A stretch of 37,387 nucleotides of DNA from a virus (Duplodnaviria; Heunggongvirae; Uroviricota; Caudoviricetes). The DNA lies in the IMG/VR virus record IMGVR_UViG_2563366935_000005. One strand, 5' to 3'. The translations under genes were made by a program, and so were the position numbers. Below are positions 1-21,872 of the stretch, one piece after another (position 1 is the stretch's first letter; every line of letters begins with the position of its first letter). The notes below the pieces were generated by a model. That model was not told the DNA's origin. It worked only from the letters and a program-made list of their open reading frames with translations, and made no database searches.

Positions 1-1053
1 TTACGGGGTAATGCCAACCGCTGCCGCCACTTTGTCGCCACTTGGCAGCGTTGCCAGAGGATTGAAACGGAGCGCCGTTTCCAGATGATCCGGTGCCAGA
101 TGTGCGTAACGCATAGTCATTTTTATATCGTGGTGTCCGAGAATTTTTTGTAAGGCCAGAATGTTTCCACCCGACATCATGAAGTGCGCCGCAAACGTAT
201 GGCGCAGAACGTGTGTGAGTTGACCGCGAGGGAGCACGATAGACGTTTTTTCCATCACGGATAAAAATTGAAAATAGCAGTCTGTGAAGAAATTGAACCC
301 ATCAAGCGCCATGATCTCTTCGTAAAGCTCTTTACTGATAGGGATGCTTCTGTTTTTCTTCCCCTTCGTTCTTACAAAGGTAATTCGGTATTTGGTCACC
401 TGTGAACGAGTAAGATTTACGGCTTCTCGCCAGCGTGCGCCTGTGCTTAAGCATATCTTAACTACCAGTGCCAGAATTGGGTCCTGACGTTTGCAATCAG
501 CCAGTAATTCAACAATCTGCTCATGGGTAAGCCATGCCATCTCTTTTTCTGCGATGGTGAATTTTCGCATGTTCTCCAGTGGGTTCGGATACGACCATTC
601 GCCCAGGCGGGATAGTTCGCTAAAAACACTACTTAGATAGCTTTGCTCCAGGTTAATGGTGACCGGGCTTGCTCCTTTCTTCCATTTCTCGCTGAAGTAG
701 ATCTCACCTGTCAGGCGTTTATCTCGATAGTGGGCAAACATTTTAGAGGTGAGATCAGTTGCAAGGGGATTGCCCAGAGCGTCAACCATCAGCAGCAATT
801 TGTCATAGACATGCTGCCCAGCAGTCAGTGATTTACCATGTAGTTTGAACCATAGCTCAACCACGTCTTTCAGTGTTCGACGATCCACTGATTCACCTAG
901 CCAGGGCTTTGCTTCGGTTTCTTCCATCGTGTGACGCTCAAAAGCCAGTGCTTCGCCTTTGGTGGCGAATTGTTTACGCACACGACGCCCACTACGTCCG
1001 GCGGGGTAACATTCGCAAAGCCATTTTCCTGTGGTGAGTTTTCGTACAGCCAT
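1..1053 (-). CDS. int: Tyrosine integrase (P2 Int-like), 350 aa
   Basis: Translation from ATG at 1051-1053 (MAVRKLTTGKWLCECYPAGRSGRRVRKQFATKGEALAFE...) resembles the P2 Int N-terminus; C-terminal HxxR...Y region (LRHTFAAHF...YAHL); GGAGG RBS 9 nt upstream; stop at 1-3. The ORF-track start at 1131 is probably an upstream over-extension. Confidence 0.9.
   Translation of the reverse strand: MAVRKLTTGKWLCECYPAGRSGRRVRKQFATKGEALAFERHTMEETEAKPWLGESVDRRTLKDVVELWFKLHGKSLTAGQHVYDKLLLMVDALGNPLATDLTSKMFAHYRDKRLTGEIYFSEKWKKGASPVTINLEQSYLSSVFSELSRLGEWSYPNPLENMRKFTIAEKEMAWLTHEQIVELLADCKRQDPILALVVKICLSTGARWREAVNLTRSQVTKYRITFVRTKGKKNRSIPISKELYEEIMALDGFNFFTDCYFQFLSVMEKTSIVLPRGQLTHVLRHTFAAHFMMSGGNILALQKILGHHDIKMTMRYAHLAPDHLETALRFNPLATLPSGDKVAAAVGITP
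21..41 (+). repeat. attL core candidate (ctgccgccactttgtcgccac), lying inside the 3' end of int
   Basis: 19/21 identity with 34535-34555; flanking sequence on both sides is unrelated; located where a P2-type attL core is expected, next to the int stop. Confidence 0.5.
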
Positions 1054-1241
1054 AAAAAATGCCCTCCAATAGAGAGCATTTTTACTGTATGTATAACCAG
1101 TGTCAATGTATGAAATCCTGCGACCATACATCTCACTGAAGCCATAATGAAGTAGGCTATTCTTTTTGCTATGTGATCATGTAACTTTTGCGGTTAACCT
1201 GTGGCTCATTTTTATTTTAGGCGCAGATATAAAAGCAAAAG

Positions 1242-3115: not shown

Positions 3116-3420
3116 GCCCCGGTGAACGCCTGAATGGACTTAATCACATTGCGGAGTTAAGGGCGAAAGTTTTTGGCCTGAATATTGAGTCAGAGCTTGA
3201 GCGGTTTATTAAAGATATGCGTGATCCATGGGATATCAATAATGAACAAAATAAAAGGGCACTGGCTGCCATATTCTTTATGGCAAAAATTCCAGCTGAA
3301 CGTCATAGCATCAGCATTAATGAGCTGACCACTGACGAAAAGCGGGAGTTGATTAAAGCAATGAATCATTTTCGTGCAGTGGTGAGCTTATTTCCCAGAC
3401 GGCTAACCATGCCGAATTAA
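3079..3420 (+). CDS. Hypothetical early protein, 113 aa
   Basis: ORF with ATG at 3079 in the early operon; overlaps the preceding gene by 37 nt in another frame; no recognisable motif. Confidence 0.4.
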   Translation: MAIEGTAATVPLSPGERLNGLNHIAELRAKVFGLNIESELERFIKDMRDPWDINNEQNKRALAAIFFMAKIPAERHSISINELTTDEKRELIKAMNHFRAVVSLFPRRLTMPN

Positions 3421-3487
3421 CCAACTAATGAAATTAATGGCGTAAACCCGCCGGGCATCCCTTTATCTAAATTCAGGAGAATTGATT

Positions 3488-3721
3488 ATGCGTAATATTG
3501 AAACCCTCACGACTAAAACCGGACCGGATGACGCAGGGCTTAATATTTTACTGACAGAGGCTCGTCTGGAAGAACGCCGGGCAAGGGCTGAAGCAATGGC
3601 TGCTCGCCTTGATAGCCTGGCGTGTTATATCTCATCCCGCCAGCTAAACCACGTGGAAGCGGCAGAACTGCTGCGCGTGACTGCTGAAGCAATCCAGAAC
3701 GAAGCGCAGGAGATCCACTAA
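3488..3721 (+). CDS. Small early protein (77 aa), DUF2732-like
   Basis: ATG at 3488 with AGGAGA RBS; stop overlaps the next start (TAATG); Ala/Arg-rich helical protein typical of P2-like early regions. Confidence 0.4.
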   Translation: MRNIETLTTKTGPDDAGLNILLTEARLEERRARAEAMAARLDSLACYISSRQLNHVEAAELLRVTAEAIQNEAQEIH

Positions 3722-3948
3722 TGGCTGATGCAATGGATCTCGTACAGCAGCGCGTTGAAGAAGAACGCCAGCGCCATATCCGTGCAGCCCGTGCCAAATC
3801 ACCGGGCGTGTCACGCGTACTTTGCATTGAATGTGAAGCGCCAATTCCGCCAGCACGACGCCGCGCCATTCCGGGAGTGCAGCTTTGCATTACCTGTCAG
3901 GAAATCGCAGAACTGAAAGGCAAACATTACAACGGAGGTGCTGTATGA
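3721..3948 (+). CDS. TraR/DksA-family C4 zinc-finger protein, 75 aa
   Basis: CxxC-N17-CxxC motif (CIECEAPIPPARRRAIPGVQLCITC); translationally coupled to the neighbouring genes. Confidence 0.6.
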   Translation: MADAMDLVQQRVEEERQRHIRAARAKSPGVSRVLCIECEAPIPPARRRAIPGVQLCITCQEIAELKGKHYNGGAV

Positions 3949-4802
3949 GCACCATCCTGAAATGGGCGGGAAATAAAACCGCCATTATGCCAGAACTGAA
4001 AAAATACCTTCCTGCTGGCCCGCGACTGGTTGAACCTTTCGCGGGTTCCTGTGCTGTGATGATGGAAACGAATTATCCCAGCTATCTGGTTGCGGATATT
4101 AATCCTGATTTAATCAACCTCTATAAAAAGGTTGCCGCTGATTGTGAATCGTTTATATCTCGCGCCAGAGTTTTATTTGAGATCGCAAACAGGGAGGTGG
4201 CTTATTACAACATAAGGCAGGAGTTTAACTGCTCAACTGAAATTACTGATTTCATGAAAGCGGTATATTTCCTGTATCTCAATCGTCACGGTTACCGTGG
4301 TTTATGTCGCTATAACAAGAGCGGACATTTCAACATTCCCTACGGTAATTATAAAAATCCGTATTTCCCTGAAAAAGAACTTCGCACATTTGCAGAAAAA
4401 GCCCAGCGAGCAACGTTTATCTGCGCCAGCTTTGATGAAACGCTGACGATGTTGAAGGCGGGAGATGTGGTGTATTGCGATCCGCCATATGACGGTACGT
4501 TTTCCGGTTATCATACTGATGGTTTCACTGAAGATGACCAGTATCACCTGGCATCCGTTCTTGAACATCGGTCATCAGAAGGACATCCGGTCATTGTTTC
4601 TAACAGTGACACATCCCTGATCCGTTCGCTGTATCGCAATTTTACTCACCACTATATCAAGGTAAAACGCAGCATCGGTGTGGCAGCTGGCGAGGGTAAA
4701 TCAGCAACAGAAATCATTGCTGTTTCCGGGCCGCGCTGCTGGATGGGATTTGATTATTCGCGTGGCGTGGATAGTTCTGCCGTGTACGGAGTACGTGCAT
4801 GA
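3945..4802 (+). CDS. dam: DNA adenine methyltransferase (Dam-like N6-adenine MTase), 285 aa
   Basis: [12 protein letters not shown]-terminus, AdoMet motif PFAGSCAV and catalytic DPPY motif (VYCDPPYDG); ATGA overlaps with both neighbours. Confidence 0.85.
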
Positions 4803-7213
4803 GTCATGCCGATATGAACAACTGCTGCGGCTTTAACGAGGCTGCCGCAGCATTCTCATGGAACAGCCCGAAAAAGGCCATTAACCCTTATCTGGACCCG
4901 GCGGAAGTTGCGCCGGTTTCTACGCTTTCAAACCTGATCACTCTGTACGCTGCCGATAACGAGCAGGAACAGTTGCGCCGCGAGGCACTGAGTGATCAGG
5001 TCTGGGAGCGTTATTTCTTTAATGAATCACGTGATCCTGTCCAGCGCGAAATGGAGCAGGATAAGCTCATTAGCCGGGCAAAGCTGGCGCATGAGCAGCA
5101 GCGTTTTAATTCAGACATGGTCATTCTGGCGGACGTCAACGCCCAGCCTTCCCATATCAGCAAGCCGCTGATGCAACGTATTGAATACTTCAGCAGCCTG
5201 GGCAGGCCAAAGGCTTATTCCCGCTATTTACGTGAGACGATTAAGCCATGTCTGGAACGACTGGAGCATGTACGCGACAGTCAGCTATCTGCATCTTTTC
5301 GCTTTATGGCAAGCCATGAAGGGCTGGACGGCCTGCTGATCCTGCCTGAAATGAGTCAGGATCAGGTGAAACGCCTGTCCACCCTGGTAGCTGCGCATAT
5401 GAGTATGTGCCTTGATGCAGCTTGTGGTGATTTGTATGCCACCGATGACGTTAAGCCAGAAGAAATCCGCAAGACATGGGAAAAGGTGGCAGCGGAAACC
5501 CTGCGTCTGGATGTCATCCCACCTGCGTTTGAGCAACTCCGTCGGAAAAGAAACCGCCGTAAACCCGTGCCCTATGAACTCATTCCGGGTTCGCTGGCGC
5601 GTATGTTGTGCGCCGACTGGTGGTATCGGAAATTATGGAAGATGCGTTGCGAATGGCGGGAAGAGCAGTTGCGCGCTGTTTGCCTGGTCAGCAAAAAAGC
5701 ATCTCCTTATGTCAGCTATGAAGCCGTGATGCATAAACGTGAGCAGCGCCGTAAGTCGCTGGAGTTTTTCCGTTCTCATGAACTGGTGAACGAAGACGGC
5801 GACACGCTGGACATGGAGGATGTGGTAAACGCCAGCAGCAGCAACCCTGCGCATCGCCGCAATGAGATGATGGCCTGTGTTAAAGGTCTGGAGCTTATCG
5901 CGGAAATGCGCGGTGACTGCGCCGTTTTCTACACTATCACCTGTCCGTCGCGTTTCCATTCCACGCTAAATAACGGCAGACCAAACCCGACCTGGACAAA
6001 CGCGACGGTAAGACAAAGCAGCGATTATCTGGTCGGCATGTTTGCTGCATTTCGTAAGGCGATGCACAAAGCCGGGTTGCGCTGGTATGGCGTGCGGGTG
6101 GCTGAGCCGCATCATGATGGCACAGTTCACTGGCACCTGTTGTGTTTCATGCGCAAAAAAGACCGCCGTGCCATCACTGCATTACTGCGTAAGTTTGCCA
6201 TCCGTGAAGACCGCGAGGAGCTGGGCAATAACACTGGGCCGCGCTTTAAGTCTGAGTTGATTAACCCGCGCAAAGGAACGCCGACAAGCTACATCGCGAA
6301 ATATATCAGTAAGAACATTGACGGTCGTGGTCTGGCTGGCGAGATCAGCAAGGAAACGGGTAAATCTCTGCGTGATAACGCTGAATACGTGAATGCCTGG
6401 GCGTCTCTGCATCGTGTTCAGCAATTCCGCTTCTTTGGTATTCCGGGGCGTCAGGCTTACCGTGAACTTCGCTTGCTGGCTGGTCAGGCGGCAAGGCAAC
6501 AGGGTGACAAAAAAGCAGGTGCGCCGGTACTGGATAACCCGCGTCTTGATGCCATTCTGGCTGCTGCTGATGCTGGTTGTTTTGCCACCTACATCATGAA
6601 GCAGGGCGGCGTACTGGTTCCCCGTAAATATCACCTCATCAGAACCGCTTATGAAATCAACGAAGAGCCGACCGCCTATGGCGATCACGGCATTCGTATT
6701 TATGGCATCTGGTCACCCATTGCAGAGGGCAAGATCTGCACTCATGCAGTGAAGTGGAAAATGGTTCGTAAAGCCGTTGACGTTCAGGAGGCGGCAGCCG
6801 ACCAGGGCGCTTGCGCCCCTTGGACTCGTGGCAATAACTGTCCCCTTGCTGAAAATTTGTACCAACAAGGGAAAGACAAATCAGCTGATGGGGATACCAG
6901 AACGGATATCACCCGCATGGATGACAAGGAATTGCACGATTACCTGCACAGTATGAACAAAAAAGAGCGCCGGGAACTGGCTGCAAGGTTACGCCTGGTG
7001 AAACCGAAACGGCGTAGAGACTACAAACAGCGAATTACAGATCATCAGCGACAGCAGCTCGTCTATGAACTGAAGTCCAGAGGATTTGATGGCAGCGAGA
7101 AAGAGGTCGATTTACTCCTTCGCGGTGGCAGTATTCCGTCAGGAGCAGGCCTGCGTATCTTCTATCGGAACCAGCGTTTGCAGGAAGATGATAAGTGGCG
7201 GGATCTGTATTAA
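4799..7213 (+). CDS. A: Replication initiation protein A (rolling-circle nicking endonuclease, P2 gpA-like), 804 aa
   Basis: Large ORF at the end of the early operon; HUH-type motif [15 protein letters not shown] and [10 protein letters not shown] region; size similar to P2 A. Confidence 0.9.
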
Positions 7214-7307
7214 TTACGCGGGTTAACAATTCGTGCTCTTAATAATACCAGGCATATCAGGCTGATGAACGTAAAAAAACGTTTTACATCAGTAAGATTA
7301 TTATATA

Positions 7308-7323
7308 CTGTAAATATAAACAG
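7308..7323 (+). promoter_or_regulatory. LexA (SOS) box CTGT-N8-ACAG (tactgtaaatataaacagtg)
   Basis: Perfect CTGT/ACAG arms with an AT-rich 8-bp spacer, 43 bp upstream of the 7366 ORF; matches the LexA consensus TACTGTATATATATACAGTA at most positions. Confidence 0.6.
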
Positions 7324-7365
7324 TGGTTATGTATACAGTATTGCTTTGGTGTCATAGGAGGAAAG

Positions 7366-7554
7366 ATGCAGGACTATTTTTTGGAGTCTTTGAAGCTCCA
7401 GCGCATTGATTTTTTTCTTAAGCTTGTAGCGGCTAGTGAGTGTAGTGATGAAGAGAAGGGGCTGGCCCTGCAGTGGGTTTCTGAACTGACAGATGAACTC
7501 ATGGCAAAAATCAGAACCCATGAATACAACCGCTCAATGGATGTCATCAGCTGA
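7366..7554 (+). CDS. Small SOS-operon protein (62 aa), candidate Tum-like antirepressor module
   Basis: ATG with AGGAGG RBS directly downstream of the LexA box; position corresponds to the 186 tum locus; no motif recognised, so function is inferred from context only. Confidence 0.4.
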   Translation: MQDYFLESLKLQRIDFFLKLVAASECSDEEKGLALQWVSELTDELMAKIRTHEYNRSMDVIS

Positions 7555-7564
7555 GGTGACTTTT

Positions 7565-7798
7565 ATGCGCATTGAAATAATGATCGATAAAGAGCAGAAG
7601 ATTAGCCAGTCTACACTGGACGCCCTTGAGTCCGAGCTTTACCGCAATCTGCGCCCCCTGTATCCCAAAACGGTAATTCGTATCCGCAAAGGTAGCTCTA
7701 ACGGTGTGGAACTGACCGGACTGCAACTGGACGAAGAAAGAAAACAAGTGATGAAAATTATGCAGAAGGTCTGGGAGGACGACAGCTGGTTACACTAG
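7565..7798 (+). CDS. DinI-like protein, 77 aa
   Basis: MRIEIMIDK...DALESELYRNL...VWEDDSWL resembles E. coli DinI (MRIEVTIAK...DALAGELSRRI...TWESADDWF); GAGGTGA RBS; second gene of the LexA-box operon. Confidence 0.7.
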   Translation: MRIEIMIDKEQKISQSTLDALESELYRNLRPLYPKTVIRIRKGSSNGVELTGLQLDEERKQVMKIMQKVWEDDSWLH

Positions 7799-7804
7799 CG
7801 AACG

Positions 7805-7839
7805 TTGCGGACGATAAAACTGGTTTTTATCGTCCGCAA
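7805..7839 (+). terminator. Perfect 15-bp-stem hairpin after the DinI-like gene (no U-tract)
   Basis: ttgcggacgataaaa / ttttatcgtccgcaa inverted repeat with a 5-nt loop, read directly; lacks a downstream T-run, so it may be a terminator or a protein-binding or processing site. Confidence 0.3.
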
Positions 7840-8004
7840 GGTTGAACAACGAGCCGCGTGAGGCGTTAGAAACGGGTAGTGAAAAGTGATTTAAGAATGC
7901 CTTGTTCCCCTGAAACTTTGGCCTATGCAACAACATTCGACAGCTTTCTTGATTATCATAAGTAACTTGAAGTTCAGGGACGATTCTGATGGTATACGTG
8001 AAAA

Positions 8005-9204
8005 ATGTATCGTGTGTTGCTTTGGCAAAAAGGAGTTTTAGTGGACAACGGCTCAATCACCTTCTTTGATATTACTGCTTGTGGGTTTTATCGTTTAAAG
8101 AATAAACCCGAAGAGCTTGATTATAAATTCGGCGATCTTATGGGGGTTTTGGACGATTTAGAAGGGTGGCTCAAGGATAAAAATTTTGAGCAGACTCTCC
8201 CATGGAATAAAGAAGAACAACCTCTGCGAACACGAGTTTACAGTCGAGGCCTTGTGAGGGACAGCCAGACTAAAGATGCAGTAATTGTTTTATACCGTGA
8301 AGTGGGGAACGGTAACGGAATACATGGTATTAAGGTCGGTTCAAAAGTAAGTGGTGATAGTAAAGGAACCATTAGGGCGGGAAGAGAACATGGTGAGGAT
8401 AAAATAATTTGGGGTGAACCCTGCTATTACTGGATTATTCCTGAGTTGAATAAAATAGCATCAATCAGATTCCCCCATTCTTTCGCTGATACTTATCTCT
8501 TCGCACAATACTTCATTCAGCATGTAAATAATAATAGTAAGTTAGGTAAAAGAACGAAATCTAAGCGTACATTTGAATCAGCTAAGACCCCTGGTCGTTG
8601 TGTGGATGTCTACAATACTAAGTTTCAATATAAAGATGGCAAAAATGAGATAAACTGTATCTTCAAGTTTGTATTGGAAGAAACAAAACTTAAAGCCGCT
8701 GAGGAAAACTTTGAAAGGTTAAGGCATAAAATTACACACACATTGATAAAGGATACAACGGTAATAAACCAAAATGACACAAGGCAACCATTGTTGAAGC
8801 TAACAAGTGTAGCTTTAGCATCTCTGGTGGGTGAAGAAAAGCGTAATAAGCTTATTGGGGCACCTCCTGTTTTGGAGCGGCCTCGTAAAATTGAAGTTAA
8901 AATTGACGGTGCACCATCATCGGATGAGCTTCGAAATCTCTTCTCAATGAGAGGTGAAGAGTCTGAATGGGATGTGGGTTTTTTACTGGCTGATCGTGCT
9001 AATCCGGTTTGGCTCAGTAGCTATGTAGCCAGGACTAAACTTCCTCTTCAAGATTCGGATGGGTTTGAGCATTATTCAGCGCGTTTTTTACTGGATGAAA
9101 TAAACAAAATTCGTGATGATTTGATTAGTGAAGTAAAATATGCTGAGGAAGCATCCATTAAAGAATCTGAAGCTGCATCCACAAAAAAGATAGCGGAAGG
9201 TTGA
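8005..9204 (+). CDS. Hypothetical soluble protein (399 aa), first gene of a two-gene cargo cassette; candidate defence or abortive-infection sensor
   Basis: AT-rich ORF unrelated to P2 core genes; an alternative GTG start at 8041 has a strong AAGGAG RBS; stop TGA overlaps the ATG of the downstream membrane protein. Confidence 0.6.
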   Translation: MYRVLLWQKGVLVDNGSITFFDITACGFYRLKNKPEELDYKFGDLMGVLDDLEGWLKDKNFEQTLPWNKEEQPLRTRVYSRGLVRDSQTKDAVIVLYREVGNGNGIHGIKVGSKVSGDSKGTIRAGREHGEDKIIWGEPCYYWIIPELNKIASIRFPHSFADTYLFAQYFIQHVNNNSKLGKRTKSKRTFESAKTPGRCVDVYNTKFQYKDGKNEINCIFKFVLEETKLKAAEENFERLRHKITHTLIKDTTVINQNDTRQPLLKLTSVALASLVGEEKRNKLIGAPPVLERPRKIEVKIDGAPSSDELRNLFSMRGEESEWDVGFLLADRANPVWLSSYVARTKLPLQDSDGFEHYSARFLLDEINKIRDDLISEVKYAEEASIKESEAASTKKIAEG

Positions 9205-9205
9205 T

Positions 9206-9742
9206 ATGACAGAAACGGAAGGTTTGATAATAACAGTTGCAAAACAGCAGGCGATTAATTTTGTTGCTGTTGTTTTGTGCTGCGTTATAAGCTATTTTTC
9301 GTTCAAAAGTTTTTCCTATAATGATGCAAAAGATATTTTAGGTGCGCTTATAAATATTTCAGCATCTATATTCACTATTGTCGGTTTATGGGTCGGTTTT
9401 TTATATCCGAATGCAATGAATAGTATTGTTAAGGATGATGTAAGTTATATAAAAAATGAGCATGACTCACCAAGAATAGAGAAATTAGTTTATACAATAA
9501 TCACATCTGCTTGTGTTATGGCTGGGATTCTAATTTTCTTTTTGGTTAAGGCAGTGTTTTATGCATTACCTGTTTATCAAGCTAATAAAGACTTGTTTAA
9601 ATACATTGGTATTTTCTTCATTTACTTTATTAGCTGGATGCAATTAAAATGCGTTATGAGCCTGATTTTGAGTAATTTACATTTTGTTAATCACTTACAT
9701 GGACGTTTAGCAAAAGCGAAATTAGAACACTATGATGAATAA
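9206..9742 (+). CDS. Small polytopic membrane protein (178 aa, about four TM helices); candidate membrane effector of the cassette
   Basis: Four hydrophobic segments (about residues 17-33, 44-67, 94-121, 134-157); GGAAGG RBS; translationally coupled to the 399-aa ORF. Confidence 0.6.
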   Translation: MTETEGLIITVAKQQAINFVAVVLCCVISYFSFKSFSYNDAKDILGALINISASIFTIVGLWVGFLYPNAMNSIVKDDVSYIKNEHDSPRIEKLVYTIITSACVMAGILIFFLVKAVFYALPVYQANKDLFKYIGIFFIYFISWMQLKCVMSLILSNLHFVNHLHGRLAKAKLEHYDE

Positions 9743-9887
9743 AGTGTTCGTATTGGCAGGAGTTACTGTGGATGTTTAACCTCAACAAGAGTAAGCCTCT
9801 TTTAACATGGGAATCACCGTTCTAACAAGCTTTGCATGTCTATGCTGCATGAATCCGCATGATCGTTTTAGGATCGTTTTTGCTGAG

Positions 9888-9915
9888 GCCCGCCAGAACT
9901 GGCGGGCTTTTGCTT
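9888..9915 (+). terminator. Rho-independent terminator after the cargo cassette
   Basis: GC-rich hairpin gcccgccag-aa-ctggcgggc followed by ttttgctt. Confidence 0.6.
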
Positions 9916-9956
9916 ATGTCATGCACCTGCATGAAAACCACTACATAAAGCGGGCA

Positions 9957-9975
9957 GGCGTGGCGGGGATACGAG
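9957..9975 (+). other. Candidate cos site (ggcgtggcggggatacgag)
   Basis: First 13 nt match my recollection of the 186 cohesive end (P2-type cos begins GGCGAGGCGGGGA); lies between the right-end cargo and the Q-side genes as expected. The 3' part differs, so this is tentative. Confidence 0.3.
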
Positions 9976-9985
9976 CGCGCGCTCA

Positions 9986-10014
9986 CTGACAGTTTTCAGA
10001 AAAGTATATATAAT
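9986..10014 (+). promoter_or_regulatory. Sigma70-like promoter for the DUF4062-like gene (-35 CTGACA, 17-bp spacer, -10 TATAAT)
   Basis: Hexamers and spacing read directly; about 38 bp upstream of the ATG at 10052. Confidence 0.5.
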
Positions 10015-10051
10015 CGCCTGAAAGATCTATACGTGCAGTGGAAATCATCAA

Positions 10052-11086
10052 ATGGATAAAAGATATCAGGTTTTTGTTAGTTCAACTTTTGCTGATCTTG
10101 AAGAAGAAAGACAGGAAGTAATGCAAGCACTGCTGGAGCTTGATTGTATGCCAGCAGGAATGGAATTATTTCCAGCAACAAATAGTGATCAGTGGAGTTT
10201 AATAAAAAAAATAATTGACGATAGTGATTATTATATTGTTATCTTGGCAGGGCGTTATGGTTCAATTGGTCCTGATGGAATAAGCTATACAGAAATGGAG
10301 TATCGTTATGCTTTGGAAACTGGTAAGCCAGTTATAGGTTTTATTCATAAAGATAAAAGTAACCTCCCCGCAAAACGTTGTGAGTCAAACCCTGAAGGCG
10401 TAGAAAAACTAAAGGCTTTCGAAGAGCTAGTTAAAACAAAATTATGTCGTTTTTGGGAGTCTCCTGCAGAATTAGGTAGCCAGGTTAGCAGAAGTTTGAT
10501 TAGACTAATTAAAGAATGTCCTGCAATTGGGTGGGTTAAAGGAAATTTAGTAACTAATGATGGTGATGCAAAGGAAATATTGAAATTAAAAAGGCGAATT
10601 GAGGAGCTTGAAAGTCAACTTGTATCAAGTATGACTGAAGCGCCTGCAGGTGCAGAAAAACTATCTCAAGGAGATGAGCTTTTTGAATTGGATTATGAAT
10701 TCTGTGTGTCGCCTACAGAATGGAGACATAATGGTGAAGAATATACCGATAAGGTCAAATTAAGCTGGAACGATATTTTTTCATATGTTTCGCCTTTGAT
10801 GATAGATGAGATAGTGGATGATAAGCTATATAGTGCTTTAAATAACTGTGTGCGAAATGCAGTTCAAGATATCATCTATGAGGATTTTAAAGATATGAAT
10901 TTATTATCTTTAAAAGTATCTAATTCTGATTTTCAAACAATAAAAGTGCAGTTTAGGGCGCTTGGGTTAATTATTAAAAGTGAAAAGAGTAGAAGTGTTA
11001 AAGATAAAGGTACTTATTGGACTTTAACACCGTATGGCGAAAATTTAATGACAACATTGAGAGCGATTAAAAAAACTTTGGTATAG
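10052..11086 (+). CDS. DUF4062-like N-terminal domain protein (344 aa) with an uncharacterised C-terminal region containing a coiled-coil-like segment; candidate single-gene defence protein
   Basis: N-terminus YQVFVSSTFADLEEERQEVMQALLELDCMPAGMELF...ILAGRYGS matches the DUF4062 pattern as I recall it; AT-rich; own promoter and terminator; not part of the P2 core gene set. Confidence 0.6.
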   Translation: MDKRYQVFVSSTFADLEEERQEVMQALLELDCMPAGMELFPATNSDQWSLIKKIIDDSDYYIVILAGRYGSIGPDGISYTEMEYRYALETGKPVIGFIHKDKSNLPAKRCESNPEGVEKLKAFEELVKTKLCRFWESPAELGSQVSRSLIRLIKECPAIGWVKGNLVTNDGDAKEILKLKRRIEELESQLVSSMTEAPAGAEKLSQGDELFELDYEFCVSPTEWRHNGEEYTDKVKLSWNDIFSYVSPLMIDEIVDDKLYSALNNCVRNAVQDIIYEDFKDMNLLSLKVSNSDFQTIKVQFRALGLIIKSEKSRSVKDKGTYWTLTPYGENLMTTLRAIKKTLV

Positions 11087-11090
11087 ATAA

Positions 11091-11126
11091 CAAAGGCCGT
11101 TCATATATGAACGGCCTTTGTTTTAT
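11091..11126. terminator. Bidirectional rho-independent terminator between the DUF4062-like gene and Q
   Basis: Perfect hairpin caaaggccgttca-tatat-tgaacggcctttg with a T-run on the plus strand and an A-run upstream. Confidence 0.7.
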
Positions 11127-12157
11127 TGTGTGGGAAAGCTATATGATTCGAATTTTATAATAACTTTACCAAGCCATTTATTTACTTCTTGTATATGCTT
11201 TTGCAGTGGTGTTAGCTCATTTCGCACAAAGACGCGGCTGGCCTTCTCCACATCCCCAAACCCCCCGACATTATTAGGCATAATCCCCATCATTTGCGGT
11301 GGCACACGATGCGCCGCCATCATGTCATCCCGGCTCACGTTCTTGATATTCAAAAACTCATCCTTCGCTGCGACCTCTGACAACGGGATAATCTGAAGCC
11401 CGTCCTTTTTGCCGTTAGGCGAGTACATAAACAGGTTGCGGAAGTTGCCTGGACCTTTGGCGCTTTTCATCGCGTTGCGGAGGTTGTTCACATCCTCCTG
11501 GTTCTGCGCGGCATCGGTCATATACATGATGAAGCCTGCATGACTGCCGTTAATGTAATACTTGCGGCGGAACAGCGTGGCAGACTCGTTGAGCAGGGCG
11601 GATGGAATAGCAGAAAGATAACCGGGCAGGCCGTAGATCTCCTGGTTGATGTCCGGTTCCATCAGATGAAAGATGCTGCCTTTCGTGAACTGATATGGCT
11701 GCGTGGTCATACCGTATTGCACAAACCAGTAGGTATCCAGGTCTAACCCGCGTCGGGTGTATTTTGCCAGGGCAGGTTCAAGGGCGATAACTTCACCGAA
11801 GCGGTTCGTGCGTTTCTCCAGGTAGGCGTTACCAAATACCAGATAGTCCTGCACAAAACGCGAAAAAGCCTGCTGGCTGAGCAGCGGGTGAGGGATGTAG
11901 GTGCTGGTCAGAATGTTGCACTTTACTGCAATCGGGGAACTATGATGCACGGCAGCGCGGAAGGTGCGCGCCAGTCCGTCAAAGCTGACGGGCGGTTCAT
12001 ACCAGCGGTCCATCTGTACGCATTCCACATAATCCAGCAGTTCTCGGCGGTCCAGAACAGGAACGGGATCGCCGAAGCTGAATGCTTCGGCTGTAGTTTG
12101 ACTTTTAAGCTGGATCTGTTTCGTCGCCGCAGCGCGGTTCTTCTTACTCTTTCCCAT
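11123..12157 (-). CDS. Q: Portal protein (P2 gpQ-like), 344 aa
   Basis: Length equals P2 Q; conserved position next to the terminase gene P; ATG at 12155-12157 overlaps the P stop. Confidence 0.9.
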   Translation of the reverse strand: MGKSKKNRAAATKQIQLKSQTTAEAFSFGDPVPVLDRRELLDYVECVQMDRWYEPPVSFDGLARTFRAAVHHSSPIAVKCNILTSTYIPHPLLSQQAFSRFVQDYLVFGNAYLEKRTNRFGEVIALEPALAKYTRRGLDLDTYWFVQYGMTTQPYQFTKGSIFHLMEPDINQEIYGLPGYLSAIPSALLNESATLFRRKYYINGSHAGFIMYMTDAAQNQEDVNNLRNAMKSAKGPGNFRNLFMYSPNGKKDGLQIIPLSEVAAKDEFLNIKNVSRDDMMAAHRVPPQMMGIMPNNVGGFGDVEKASRVFVRNELTPLQKHIQEVNKWLGKVIIKFESYSFPTQ

Positions 12158-19040: not shown

Positions 19041-19434
19041 AGCGGTGCCTTATGTCCGCAATAACCCGGACAAACTGCATCTGTTTGTGGATAACGGTTC
19101 GCTGGTTGCCACGGGGGCCAGCTCCATGTCATGGGAGTACCGCTATACCCTGAACGTGGTGATAGAGGATTTCAGCGGCGACCAGAATCTGCTGATGGCC
19201 CCGGTTTTGCTGTGGCTTCGGGATAACCAGCCCGATGCCATCAATAACCCGGCGTTACGGGAAAAGCTATTCACCTTTGAGGTGGATATTTTGCGCAACG
19301 ATGTCTGTGATATCAGCCTTAACCTGCAACTGACGGAACGTGTGCTGGTCAGCACTGACGGCAGTGTGTCGAGCGTTGAAGCTGTAGCAGAACCCGATGA
19401 ACCTGAAGAAATGTGGACGGTGAAACGTGGCTGA
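19003..19434 (+). CDS. R: Tail completion protein R (P2 gpR-like), 143 aa from GTG 19003
   Basis: Resembles P2 R (LRHALNKAVPYVRNNPDKLHLFVDNGS..., YTLNVVIEDFSGD..., LWLRDNQPD); AGGAG RBS 7 nt upstream of the GTG; the ORF-track start at 18982 is TTG. Confidence 0.75.
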   Translation: MNKPQSLRHALNKAVPYVRNNPDKLHLFVDNGSLVATGASSMSWEYRYTLNVVIEDFSGDQNLLMAPVLLWLRDNQPDAINNPALREKLFTFEVDILRNDVCDISLNLQLTERVLVSTDGSVSSVEAVAEPDEPEEMWTVKRG

Positions 19435-19873
19435 ACTGCAGAAGGTGGACGACTGGCTGAGTGCCTTGCTGGCGAATCTGGAACCAGCCACGAGAAGCCG
19501 CATGATGCGCCAGCTGGCGCAGGAACTGCGCCGGACACAGCAGCAGAATATCAGGATGCAGCGCAATCCAGATGGCAGCAGTTATGAACCGCGCAGGGTA
19601 ACAGCACGCAGCAAGAAGGGGCGCATCAAACGTCAGATGTTTGCAAAGCTGCGCACCACAAAATACCTGAAAACTGCCGCCAGCGCCGATTCTGCCAGCG
19701 TACAGTTTGAAGGCAAGGTGCAGCGTATTGCCCGTGTTCACCATTACGGCCTGCGTGATCGCGTCAGTCGCAAAGGACCGGAGGTCCGTTACGTAGAGCG
19801 CCGCCTGCTGGGTGTAAATGATGATGTTGAGGCAATGACCCGCGACATGATTCTGCAATGGCTGGCGGGGTGA
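19427..19873 (+). CDS. S: Tail completion protein S (P2 gpS-like), 148 aa
   Basis: GTG start overlapping the R stop; position and size match P2 S. Confidence 0.75.
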   Translation: MAELQKVDDWLSALLANLEPATRSRMMRQLAQELRRTQQQNIRMQRNPDGSSYEPRRVTARSKKGRIKRQMFAKLRTTKYLKTAASADSASVQFEGKVQRIARVHHYGLRDRVSRKGPEVRYVERRLLGVNDDVEAMTRDMILQWLAG

Positions 19874-19919
19874 CTTTGATAACCGTAATCAGAATTTTGT
19901 CAGTTCGGTTTAATGTGAG

Positions 19920-21209
19920 TCAATTGGTAAAAATTCTACTCTGCTCACCATAGCTGTCCTTTGCTTCGTTAATCAGATCCTCCCATGGCCATTTTATGGT
20001 TACATATTTTCGATAAATTAAAATGGTTCTGTCGATAGCAGTGACCTCATCAGTTGCATCATTGTAGGAAAGAACTAACCCTCTATCGTCACTATCAACC
20101 TGTAACTCTTCAATTTTTTGAAGTACAGTTCGCAGATTCCCTTTTAATATTCGACTTTGTCTTCTTGACGCAATTTTAAAAATGGTATCTAACTCTAATC
20201 CTTGAATGAGTTCTTTATCGGATGAGTCCATTATTACAGCCATGGCATGAGCATAAATGCCAGTGGTTTCTGTTCTTTTACGTATTCCTGATGATATATC
20301 TTTAGCAAATTTTTGATATCGAGAATTTAATTGTTCAGCATATTTCATGGCTGCATCAACGAATTTTTCTTGATCATCTAACATCGTTAATGTTGTACAT
20401 TCCTCATCAATTCCTGTCTCGTCAAGAATGTTTAAGGCTAGTTGTTGTAAAATCCCAACATTACCATAGCAATCATCAAGGATGCATCTCTTTATATGAT
20501 CTGAGAACTTAACTTTTAAAGTTTCTGATCCACTTATTATTACTTGTTCAAGATCGGCTCTAGACCATGATATGGGAATTTCTTCTATGCGAGAACCAAG
20601 GTCAGAATTTAAATAAATTAGTAGGTTTGTTTTTGTCCAAACACCAATGATTACGAAAAAACAACCATAATCCCAAAGCGCCTTTAAGTCATAAGCAAAT
20701 ATTTGTCGTTCACGAGTGTTTAAGTAGTGAAAATCTTCAATAACTACTTTTCTTCCTGCTTCGTTAATTATTTCTGCAATAAATCTCAAATCATTAATAT
20801 CTTGACCAACATTTCCTTTTTTTATTACCTCCTCTTCAGAGGTCTCAAGTCCAAATTTAACCTTTAGTTTTGCTATAAGACCAATGCCTCCTGCAGCAGA
20901 GCCCTCCATTACGCCTTTAATTGTATCTTTTTCGGTTCTCTCTAGCACAAGGCTTATACCTAATTGAGATAGAATATCTATATATATATCTAAAACGGTT
21001 GTCTTTAATCTGCATTGTACAACAATAGCATTAGGTATGTTCTTTTGTCTTAACCATGACTTACCACATTTGGATTCCCCTCTTAAGGCGAGATGTATTG
21101 GTCGGCGTAATTTTCTACTGATTTCCTTATCAAGATTTCCTCTGTCTACATATGAATCAGCAAGAATCGTTGGTGAAATACCAAAAACTTCGTGTGTTTG
21201 TTTCTTCAT
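19920..21209 (-). CDS. Stand-alone P-loop NTPase (429 aa) encoded antisense in an AT-rich moron between S and V; candidate defence or abortive-infection ATPase
   Basis: Walker A GESKCGKS near residue 45 and a Walker B-like hhhhDE (KVVIEDFH); ATG at 21207-21209 with GAGG RBS; opposite strand to the late operons; at the position where P2 carries its variable orf30. Confidence 0.65.
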   Translation of the reverse strand: MKKQTHEVFGISPTILADSYVDRGNLDKEISRKLRRPIHLALRGESKCGKSWLRQKNIPNAIVVQCRLKTTVLDIYIDILSQLGISLVLERTEKDTIKGVMEGSAAGGIGLIAKLKVKFGLETSEEEVIKKGNVGQDINDLRFIAEIINEAGRKVVIEDFHYLNTRERQIFAYDLKALWDYGCFFVIIGVWTKTNLLIYLNSDLGSRIEEIPISWSRADLEQVIISGSETLKVKFSDHIKRCILDDCYGNVGILQQLALNILDETGIDEECTTLTMLDDQEKFVDAAMKYAEQLNSRYQKFAKDISSGIRKRTETTGIYAHAMAVIMDSSDKELIQGLELDTIFKIASRRQSRILKGNLRTVLQKIEELQVDSDDRGLVLSYNDATDEVTAIDRTILIYRKYVTIKWPWEDLINEAKDSYGEQSRIFTN

Positions 21210-21229
21210 GATGGCCTCACTATCCGTTT

Positions 21230-21247
21230 TGTACTGTTTATCACACA
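21230..21247. promoter_or_regulatory. Ogr-type late activator box TGT-N12-ACA upstream of V
   Basis: tgt actgtttatcac aca, centred about 55 bp upstream of the V start; lies in the divergent region shared with the antisense NTPase gene. Confidence 0.5.
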
Positions 21248-21293
21248 AACAATACTAAAGGAAAGCCGCTTTCTTTTAATTAACTATATCCAT

Positions 21294-21872
21294 ATGAACG
21301 CACAATTAACCGAAATCATGCGCCTTATCACCAACCTGATCCGCACAGGGGTAGTCACCGAAGTGGACAAGGAGAACTGGCTTTGCCGGGTGAAAACAGG
21401 CGAGCTTGAAACTAACTGGATCAGTTGGCTGACGCTGCGTGCCGGAAATGCCCGGACATGGTGGCGACCATCGGAAGGTGAGCAGGTGGTGCTGCTGAGT
21501 CTGGGCGGCAATCTGGAGACTGCCTTTGCGCTGCCCGCTGTCTATTCGAATCAGTTCGCACCACCGTCGACGTCGGCGGACGCCTGCGTGACAGAACATC
21601 CTGACGGTGGCTGGTTTGAATACGAACCCGCCACCGGGCGCTGGTATGTCAGGGGCATCAAATCAATGGTCATTGAGGCCGCTGACAACATCACCCTGAA
21701 AACCAATGAGTTTGTACTGGAGGCTGACCGCACGCGCATTAACAGCGAAGTGGTGATCAATGGTGGCGTTACCCAGGGCGGCGGAGCGATGAGTTCTAAC
21801 GGGATCGTGGTTGATGCGCATCAGCATACTGGCGTCCTGAAAGGCGGCGACACAACTGGAGGCCCGGTATGA
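21294..21872 (+). CDS. V: Baseplate spike/assembly protein V (P2 gpV-like), 192 aa
   Basis: ATG at 21294; conserved position ahead of W-J-I-H; the ORF-track start at 21192 is an upstream over-extension. Confidence 0.85.
   Translation: MNAQLTEIMRLITNLIRTGVVTEVDKENWLCRVKTGELETNWISWLTLRAGNARTWWRPSEGEQVVLLSLGGNLETAFALPAVYSNQFAPPSTSADACVTEHPDGGWFEYEPATGRWYVRGIKSMVIEAADNITLKTNEFVLEADRTRINSEVVINGGVTQGGGAMSSNGIVVDAHQHTGVLKGGDTTGGPV

Follow-up and report, generated by a model that had tools for sequence, protein, structure and literature searches.

The stretch of DNA analysed here (the window) comprises 37,387 nucleotides of the virus record IMGVR_UViG_2563366935_000005, and this work concerns the interval at positions 7214-11122, which separates the replication gene A from the portal gene Q of a P2-like prophage. 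Comparison with known phages indicated a prophage of the 186/Fels-2 type, the nearest phage records being Fels-2, RE2010 and Klebsiella P2-like prophages, with a 186-type CI repressor at 1449-2024 on the minus strand (domains Phage_CI_repr and Phage_CI_C) and a 186-type CII. From A towards Q the interval carries a LexA-box module with a TumA-like open reading frame (ORF) and a DinI-family gene, a two-gene cassette matching the PADLOC models PDC-M18A and PDC-M18B, the cohesive-end site (cos) with a terminator, and a promoter-equipped DUF4062 gene; all four units named in a preliminary description of this DNA are therefore present (Table 1). Since it lies between homologues of A and Q, has a cos of the P2/186 type inside it and shows a hypervariable, defence-rich content among close relatives, the interval very probably represents, in this prophage, the gpA-gpQ defence hotspot next to cos, known as the tin/old locus or 'P2 hotspot #1', and is built from a conserved backbone and two exchangeable cargo slots, a left one on the A side of cos and a right one on the Q side. 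A locus of this kind is already known and both cargoes are already catalogued; the arrangement is real but largely ordinary.

Table 1. Features of the A-Q interval and its two flanking genes, in positions of the window.
Feature	Position	Strand	Basis and remarks
Replication gene A	4799-7213	+	Pfam Phage_GPA 1.4e-127; left conserved flank; matching E. coli records say replication endonuclease
p95-like SOS promoter region with LexA box (putative)	7282-7324	+	Position of the annotated p95/LexA site upstream of 186 tum
LexA box TACTGTAAATATAAACAGT	7306-7324	+	Exact TACTGT-N8-ACAGT match; chance expectation 0.41 matches at <=1 mismatch
TumA-like ORF, 62 amino acids (aa)	7366-7554	+	Smith-Waterman alignment with 186 Tum; position as PsP3 tumA
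DinI-family gene (TumB equivalent)	7565-7798	+	Pfam DinI 6.5e-23
Strong hairpin, no U-tract	7801-7843	+	-26.3 kcal/mol, z -7.5; site of 186 partial terminator t95a
Left cargo slot	7870-9829	+	Position of 186 orf97 and P2 tin/old; holds the PDC-M18 cassette
PDC-M18A, 387 aa	8041-9204	+	GTG start after AAGGAG; alternative ATG 8005; PADLOC PDC-M18A 9.7e-31
PDC-M18B, 178 aa	9206-9742	+	Starts 1 nt past the M18A stop; PADLOC PDC-M18B 2.8e-18
Conserved cos anchor, 154 bp	9830-9983	+	Terminator, terminase-side conserved sequence, 19-nt cohesive end
Intrinsic terminator (t95b equivalent)	9886-9915	+	Hairpin 9886-9912 then U-run; -23.6 kcal/mol, z -4.2
Cohesive-end sequence GGCGTGGCGGGGATACGAG	9957-9975	+	Alignment with annotated P2 and 186 cohesive ends
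Right cargo slot	9984-11200	+	Promoter, DUF4062/Swarozyc gene, shared terminator, AT-rich last ~25 codons of Q
Sigma-70 promoter match CTGACA-17-TATAAT	9986-10014	+	11/12; presumed use
DUF4062 gene (Swarozyc family TIR-like NADase), 344 aa	10052-11086	+	Pfam DUF4062 (PF13271) 1.5e-29
Perfect 17+17 palindrome (34 nt), bidirectional terminator	11089-11122	both	Terminator scan; inverted repeat
Portal gene Q	11123-12157	-	Pfam Phage_portal; right conserved flank

Analysis of the nucleotide composition confirmed that the interval is visibly poorer in guanine plus cytosine (GC) than its surroundings, with a GC content of 0.382 compared with 0.519 for the remainder of the 37.4-kb window; windows of equal size (3909 bp) reach so low a value in 0.4% of cases, the minimum of 0.380 being found for the one starting at 7272. 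In 500-bp windows the low GC is continuous from about 7000 to 11100, as would be expected if the whole 3.9 kb, SOS module and cos included, had been acquired at once as a single AT-rich island. The codon composition and the distribution of the parts make such an origin barely credible. The three cargo genes have a GC content at third codon positions (GC3) of 0.24-0.33 and lie at a large codon-usage distance (0.23-0.29) from the A/Q/P core, so the cargo is strongly unlike the phage core, whose GC3 is 0.57-0.72, while the TumA-like ORF and the DinI gene, at 0.53-0.60, are near the core values. Moreover, the Tum/DinI backbone and the cos anchor were found at 90-99% identity in about 1280-1460 of 5426 complete Escherichia coli genomes with varied or no cargo, left and right cargo separate from each other and occur with many partners, and a mosaic junction lies at cos. 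Since the GC3 of the TumA-like ORF and the DinI gene is backbone-like and that of the cargo is low, the low GC of the interval is due to two AT-rich cargo blocks and intergenic DNA laid over a conserved backbone, and not to one uniform island. The label 'accessory island' used in the preliminary description therefore fits the cargo, while the SOS module and cos that it also covered belong to the conserved backbone.

The independence of the two cargo blocks was apparent from the same set of complete E. coli genomes, among which parts of the interval matched in 1281 and at least 80% of it in none; gene content in this region differs among related phages, so that neither of the two observations named beforehand as refuting the preliminary description (GC and codon usage like those of the rest of the prophage, or one gene content in all relatives) was made. 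Homology to the Tum/DinI backbone ends at about 7869, or in a few loci within 7789-7852 (7789, 7808 and 7852). Alignment with loci carrying other left cargo showed that homology stops at 7789-7869 and restarts at 9822-9834, and with loci carrying other right cargo that it stops at 9981-9983 and restarts only at 11140-11199, inside Q. An identical DUF4062 protein, encoded at the same distance from Q, was found with at least nine A-side contents, namely DUF4145, DUF2971, HNH-like, DUF8087, several hypothetical sets of one to three genes, PDC-M18 and an empty slot; in the empty case, locus L007, just 8 bp separate the two anchors. Conversely, identical PDC-M18B occurred with at least seven Q-side contents (none, AIPR, GmrSD, KAP NTPase, PIN, an unknown 557-aa protein and DUF4062). 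In the complete genomes the M18 cassette was present in 8 and the DUF4062 gene in 7, and the two were never together; the same PDC-M18 and DUF4062 combination was found at 99.8% identity in a draft genome (L011). These associations bear out the earlier suggestion of two adjacent and independent loci rather than one acquired block.

A binned identity scan revealed that locus L017 is identical to the window (100%) over 4000-9983 and then diverges, and that L007 is identical to it from 9830 to about 13600. Because the identity with L017 ends at 9983 and that with L007 starts at 9830, the window seems to be a recombinant with its junction in the cos anchor. Identity with loci L004 and L010 is complete (100%) throughout the DUF4062 gene and up to about 11200, falling to 92-96% beyond that point, and the right-hand crossovers appear to fall within Q. 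The preliminary description had spoken of insertion hotspots, which would imply site-specific or transpositional entry at fixed targets on each side of cos. Such entry would account for the sharply recurrent junctions at 7869, 9830-9833 and 9983, and for the fact that the left cargo, set against the empty L007 allele, amounts to 1.96 kb cleanly inserted, with only 8 bp of difference. It is nonetheless quite unlikely: a search for repeats at the slot borders gave no flanking direct or inverted repeats, no integrase, transposase or mobility gene was found in the interval, some left junctions vary (7789, 7808, 7852) and the right one is variable within Q (11140-11199), and the identity tracts run into Q/P and decay with distance, as for homologous exchange. 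Since repeats and mobility genes are absent and the right junction lies inside Q, we infer that the two loci, whose separateness holds as claimed, are better described as replacement slots in which new cargo would arrive through homologous recombination within conserved sequence on either side (A-tum, the cos anchor and Q-P). A GmrSD gene on the Q side of an E. coli locus (L022, GCA_900448105.1) is truncated by IS1 (InsA/DDE_Tnp_IS1), indicating that Q-side cargo can be inactivated in place.

The assignment of cos follows from alignment with the annotated P2 and 186 ends. The 19-mer GGCGTGGCGGGGATACGAG is identical to the Fels-2 sequence and agrees over 13 nt with the beginning of the 186 cohesive end, and its flanks are conserved as well, with TGCATGAAAACC...AAAGCGGGC on the A side and about 7 nt (CGCGCGC) on the Q side. 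The block of about 150 bp around it recurs with sharp ends, at 9830-9833 and 9981-9987, in about 1460 of the 5426 genomes. Fels-2 itself (L028, NC_010463) has cargo on both sides of cos in the region 3145-5841, an ORF of 243 aa on the A side and one of 565 aa on the Q side; the A-side ORF equals 186 orf97 in length.

Occupancy of the two slots was surveyed by using the Q protein to find 80 loci, each species being represented by a single genome; 54 of these loci had A, cos and Q all placeable, and the cos-to-Q interval was counted as filled when it exceeded 500 bp. Of the 54 loci, 46 (85%) had cargo between cos and Q and 28 had it on the A side, with 22 filled in both slots and 2 in neither, and across these loci the association between left and right occupancy was not significant (odds ratio 0.31, p 0.25). 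Orientation also distinguishes the slots: 80 of 84 Q-side ORFs of at least 100 aa (loci L029-L094) run from cos to Q, convergent with the late operon, while the A-side ORFs are mixed (23 to 13). Q-side cargo was rich in defence families, including PD-T4-9/CmdTAC, PDC-M11, PDC-S49, bSEFIR, AbiLi, AriA, an Old-like ATPase-TOPRIM, TIR, KAP, SIR2 and AbiC. Empty cos-to-Q intervals measure 167-265 bp (168 and 177 bp in P2 and 186) and have a GC content of 0.53-0.63, compared with 0.32-0.47 for filled ones.

The low GC extends into Q. The tail of this gene in the window (about 11123-11200, the last 25 codons or so) has a GC content of 0.28 against 0.53 for the body. Across species the last 22-30 codons average 0.36 where the right slot is filled and 0.55 where it is empty, while the 63 codons upstream remain at 0.52-0.55 in either case. 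The tail differs with the type of right-slot cargo, keeping the peptide pattern NxWLGEEVIxFxxYxL. The extension of AT-richness into an essential gene is the point that would favour a cause of the low GC in the structure or regulation that the cos/packaging region requires, as opposed to a foreign origin; the GC content of the empty intervals, the value of 0.55 that the Q tail then takes and the GC-rich cos flanks of P2 and 186 render this explanation very improbable. A variation of the Q tail specific to the Swarozyc family, to which the DUF4062 protein belongs, was also considered and was rejected because every right-slot cargo type has its own tail and because KpSwz, the characterised member of that family described below, contacts the portal stem, clip and N-terminal stalk and not the C-terminus (Osinski 2026 preprint).

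The backbone to the left of the left slot has the parts of a 186-type Tum SOS induction module: a LexA operator, regions resembling the N-terminal part of Tum and DinI, and a 186-type CI in the same phage. Alignment of the 62-aa ORF with residues 6-41 of 186 Tum gave a Smith-Waterman score of 57, compared with 25 +/- 4.5 for shuffled sequences, none of 500 of which reached 57 (z about 7, a weak similarity); neither 186 Tum nor PsP3 TumA was matched when the ORF was searched with BLASTP. The TumA-like ORF is present in every related locus. The DinI-family protein showed 41% identity to residues 71-145, the C-terminal half, of 186 Tum and was very close to PsP3 TumB. Judged from these alignments, Tum is split here into a TumA-like protein and a DinI/TumB protein, as in PsP3, and the backbone would provide a LexA-repressed split-Tum antirepressor module responding to SOS. 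Promoter hexamers resembling p95 were assigned by their position and are putative; a scan for consensus promoters reported none at the p95-like region 7282-7324. A second LexA-box-like site, TACTGTATGTATAACCAGT, with one mismatch, was noted at 1083-1101, close to the 5' end of the ORF that encodes the integrase (1-1131, minus strand).

According to the annotation of phage 186 the order of elements is p95, tum, t95a, orf97, t95b and cos, and transcription starting at the LexA-controlled p95 reaches orf97 by passing the partial terminator t95a. In the window the hairpin that follows the DinI gene sits within the left anchor, which is conserved to about 7869, and the left slot is bracketed by this hairpin and by the terminator next to cos in the same way as 186 orf97. 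Given the reading of orf97 from p95 through t95a and the same bracketing here, SOS-dependent read-through from p95 into PDC-M18 may be possible.

The left slot holds adjacent genes matching the PADLOC models PDC-M18A and PDC-M18B, with a GC content of 0.39 for M18A and 0.31 for M18B. PDC-M18 is a computational candidate of PADLOC, taken in the literature to be the same as system 4 of the P4 satellite hotspot; a search of the open-access literature gave no experimental report of its anti-phage activity. Distant blastn searches in E. coli for a P4-borne PDC-M18 cassette found the cos anchor alone, and a shuttle from P2 to P4 is thus unsupported at the DNA level. Hydropathy analysis (Kyte-Doolittle) of PDC-M18B revealed four hydrophobic segments, at about 15-33, 48-66, 103-121 and 136-154, and lambda RexB gave a similar four-segment profile, as estimated from hydropathy alone. 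An AlphaFold model of PDC-M18A built from a 39-sequence alignment (predicted local distance difference test score, pLDDT, 82; predicted template modelling score, pTM, 0.74) suggests a soluble protein with a predicted RexA/RdgC-like fold and points to a RexAB-like mechanism. By analogy with lambda RexAB, PDC-M18A would sense DNA or a replication intermediate and activate PDC-M18B as a membrane effector, and the infection would be aborted.

The chance that PDC-M18 works like RexAB, without being filed as a member of that family, is in our estimate a little short of even. Several searches with PDC-M18A weigh against it: the Pfam RexA model (PF15969) was not matched and Pfam yielded no domain at all, a profile search of the Protein Data Bank lent no RexA support, hhalign comparisons of the 39-sequence alignment with one RexA and with a RexA alignment of 25 sequences returned probabilities of 0.2-0.5%, and Foldseek found nothing significant. 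The proposal gives PDC-M18, an abundant uncharacterised candidate in P2 and P4 hotspots, a testable RexAB-like mechanism.

The right slot encodes a DUF4062 protein identical to WP_001513676.1. Alignment with the KpSwz chains 10wc/11cq/11cv gave a full-length match (E 6.6e-69) spanning residues 1-341 of 344 and chain residues 2-324 of 326, in which E81 aligns with the catalytic glutamate E97 of KpSwz (FTE/YTE motif). The C-terminal auxiliary (AUX) domain diverges much more from KpSwz than the N-terminal TIR-like domain does; the WY hairpin of KpSwz, for instance, is WR here. By its sequence the protein is a member of the Swarozyc family in every respect, having a TIR-like domain with the glutamate, an AUX domain and a single-gene organisation. 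KpSwz is a TIR-like NADase (an enzyme that hydrolyses nicotinamide adenine dinucleotide, NAD+) that is inactive until its AUX domain binds the portal of an incoming phage, whereupon NAD+ is depleted and the infection is abortive; portal-triggered NAD+ hydrolysis is known for KpSwz with the Bas14 portal alone, and a homologue from E. coli/Enterobacteriaceae also protected (Osinski 2026 preprint). Related DUF4062 defences form the Evangelion family (Ibarra-Chavez 2026 preprint). The right-slot protein, possibly expressed from its own promoter, is predicted by homology to act as KpSwz does, the portal of an incoming phage switching on its NADase. The palindrome downstream, with folding energies of -23.6 kcal/mol for one strand and -24.1 kcal/mol for the other, is common to the DUF4062 gene and the convergent Q.

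Whether such cargo serves defence bears on both slots. A role in lysogenic conversion or to the benefit of the phage itself, such as PDC-M18 tuning the resident lysis-lysogeny switch, could be argued from the status of PDC-M18 as just a computational candidate, from the partition systems carried by about a quarter of P2 hotspots and the toxins carried by some, from the RexB-independent role of RexA in the lambda switch, and from the place of the left slot within the presumed SOS transcription unit. We regard this as unlikely, since DUF4062 homologues defend experimentally, PDC-M18 also occurs in the P4 satellite defence hotspot, and defence families predominate among the neighbouring alleles of either slot; an anti-phage function of both cargoes is favoured.

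Taken further, the data would allow a wider interpretation, which is held tentatively, as rather less likely than not: the 'single' P2 hotspot may be a bipartite, cos-anchored structure that follows different rules on its two sides, in which the Q-side slot is the main one, with polarity towards Q and with cargo that brings its own recoded, AT-rich end of the portal gene and so repeatedly rewrites the C-terminus of Q, and PDC-M18 may be a RexAB-type abortive-infection system, unrecognisable by sequence, inside the SOS (Tum) unit. If true, the rewriting of the portal C-terminus by cargo exchange would matter for portal-sensing cargo such as Swarozyc.

Two further regions of low GC were observed elsewhere in the window. 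One, at 895-2478 (0.36-0.42), covers the 5' end of the integrase gene, the CI repressor gene and the apl/cII switch region. The other, at about 19777-21437 between the tail genes gpS (19427-19873) and gpV (21294-21872), contains a third defence cargo, an ORF at 19920-21209 on the minus strand (GC 0.35) with 429/442 aa and a PADLOC PDC-S59 match (E 1.9e-197); as a hotspot, this gpS-gpV position is distinct from the classical Z/fun site.

The gpA-gpQ locus is an established P2 defence hotspot (Rousset 2022, PMC9122126; Vassallo 2022, PMC9519451; NAR 2026, PMC13586616; Odegrip 2006), for which 1650 arrangements were counted among 18,150 E. coli loci, many holding more than one system, and which was confirmed independently and, in 2026, re-analysed (NAR 2026, PMC13586616). 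Table S5 of Rousset 2022 lists the exact DUF4062 sequence as system 67, with 63 occurrences, and its arrangements include the accessions of these PDC-M18 proteins. The locus described here shares with the published hotspot the same flanking genes, the adjacency to cos, the extreme variability and the defence cargo, and differs in that the published hotspot was treated as one locus 'adjacent to cos' while here it is divided by cos into two slots that assort independently; in P2 and 186 only the A-side slot is occupied. No description of a split at cos, of a predominant and polar Q side or of an AT-rich Q tail was found in the open-access literature. The cos split, the orientation of right-slot genes almost always towards Q, the AT-rich Q tail and the predicted RexA/RdgC-like fold of PDC-M18A are minor additions. 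For discovery by guilt by association, the boundaries of systems would be drawn more cleanly if gpA-gpQ loci were divided at cos, since apparent diversity is inflated by arrangements in which two independent cassettes are mixed.

Compared with the SOS operons of 186 and PsP3, the window has the LexA box, the hairpin after tum, the cargo position, the terminator and then cos in common, and the tumA/tumB split is that of PsP3. Phage 186 differs in having Tum as a single 146-aa protein, orf97 in place of PDC-M18 and nothing between cos and the portal gene. The RexAB-type systems compared were lambda RexAB (Adams 2024, PMC11077077) and Pseudomonas putida RexABpp (2026, PMC12894663). PDC-M18 resembles them in the small polytopic membrane partner, with four predicted transmembrane segments, encoded downstream of PDC-M18A, while it differs from lambda RexAB in that PDC-M18A is about 100 residues longer and has no sequence or profile similarity to RexA and in that the cassette does not adjoin the immunity repressor. 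With KpSwz the right-slot system shares the single-gene organisation, the conserved catalytic glutamate and an alignable AUX domain, and its setting is that of a gene lying directly beside, and convergent with, the portal gene of the resident phage. A predicted portal-sensing NADase next to the portal gene of its own phage offers a natural system for studying how a prophage avoids self-triggered abortive infection during induction.

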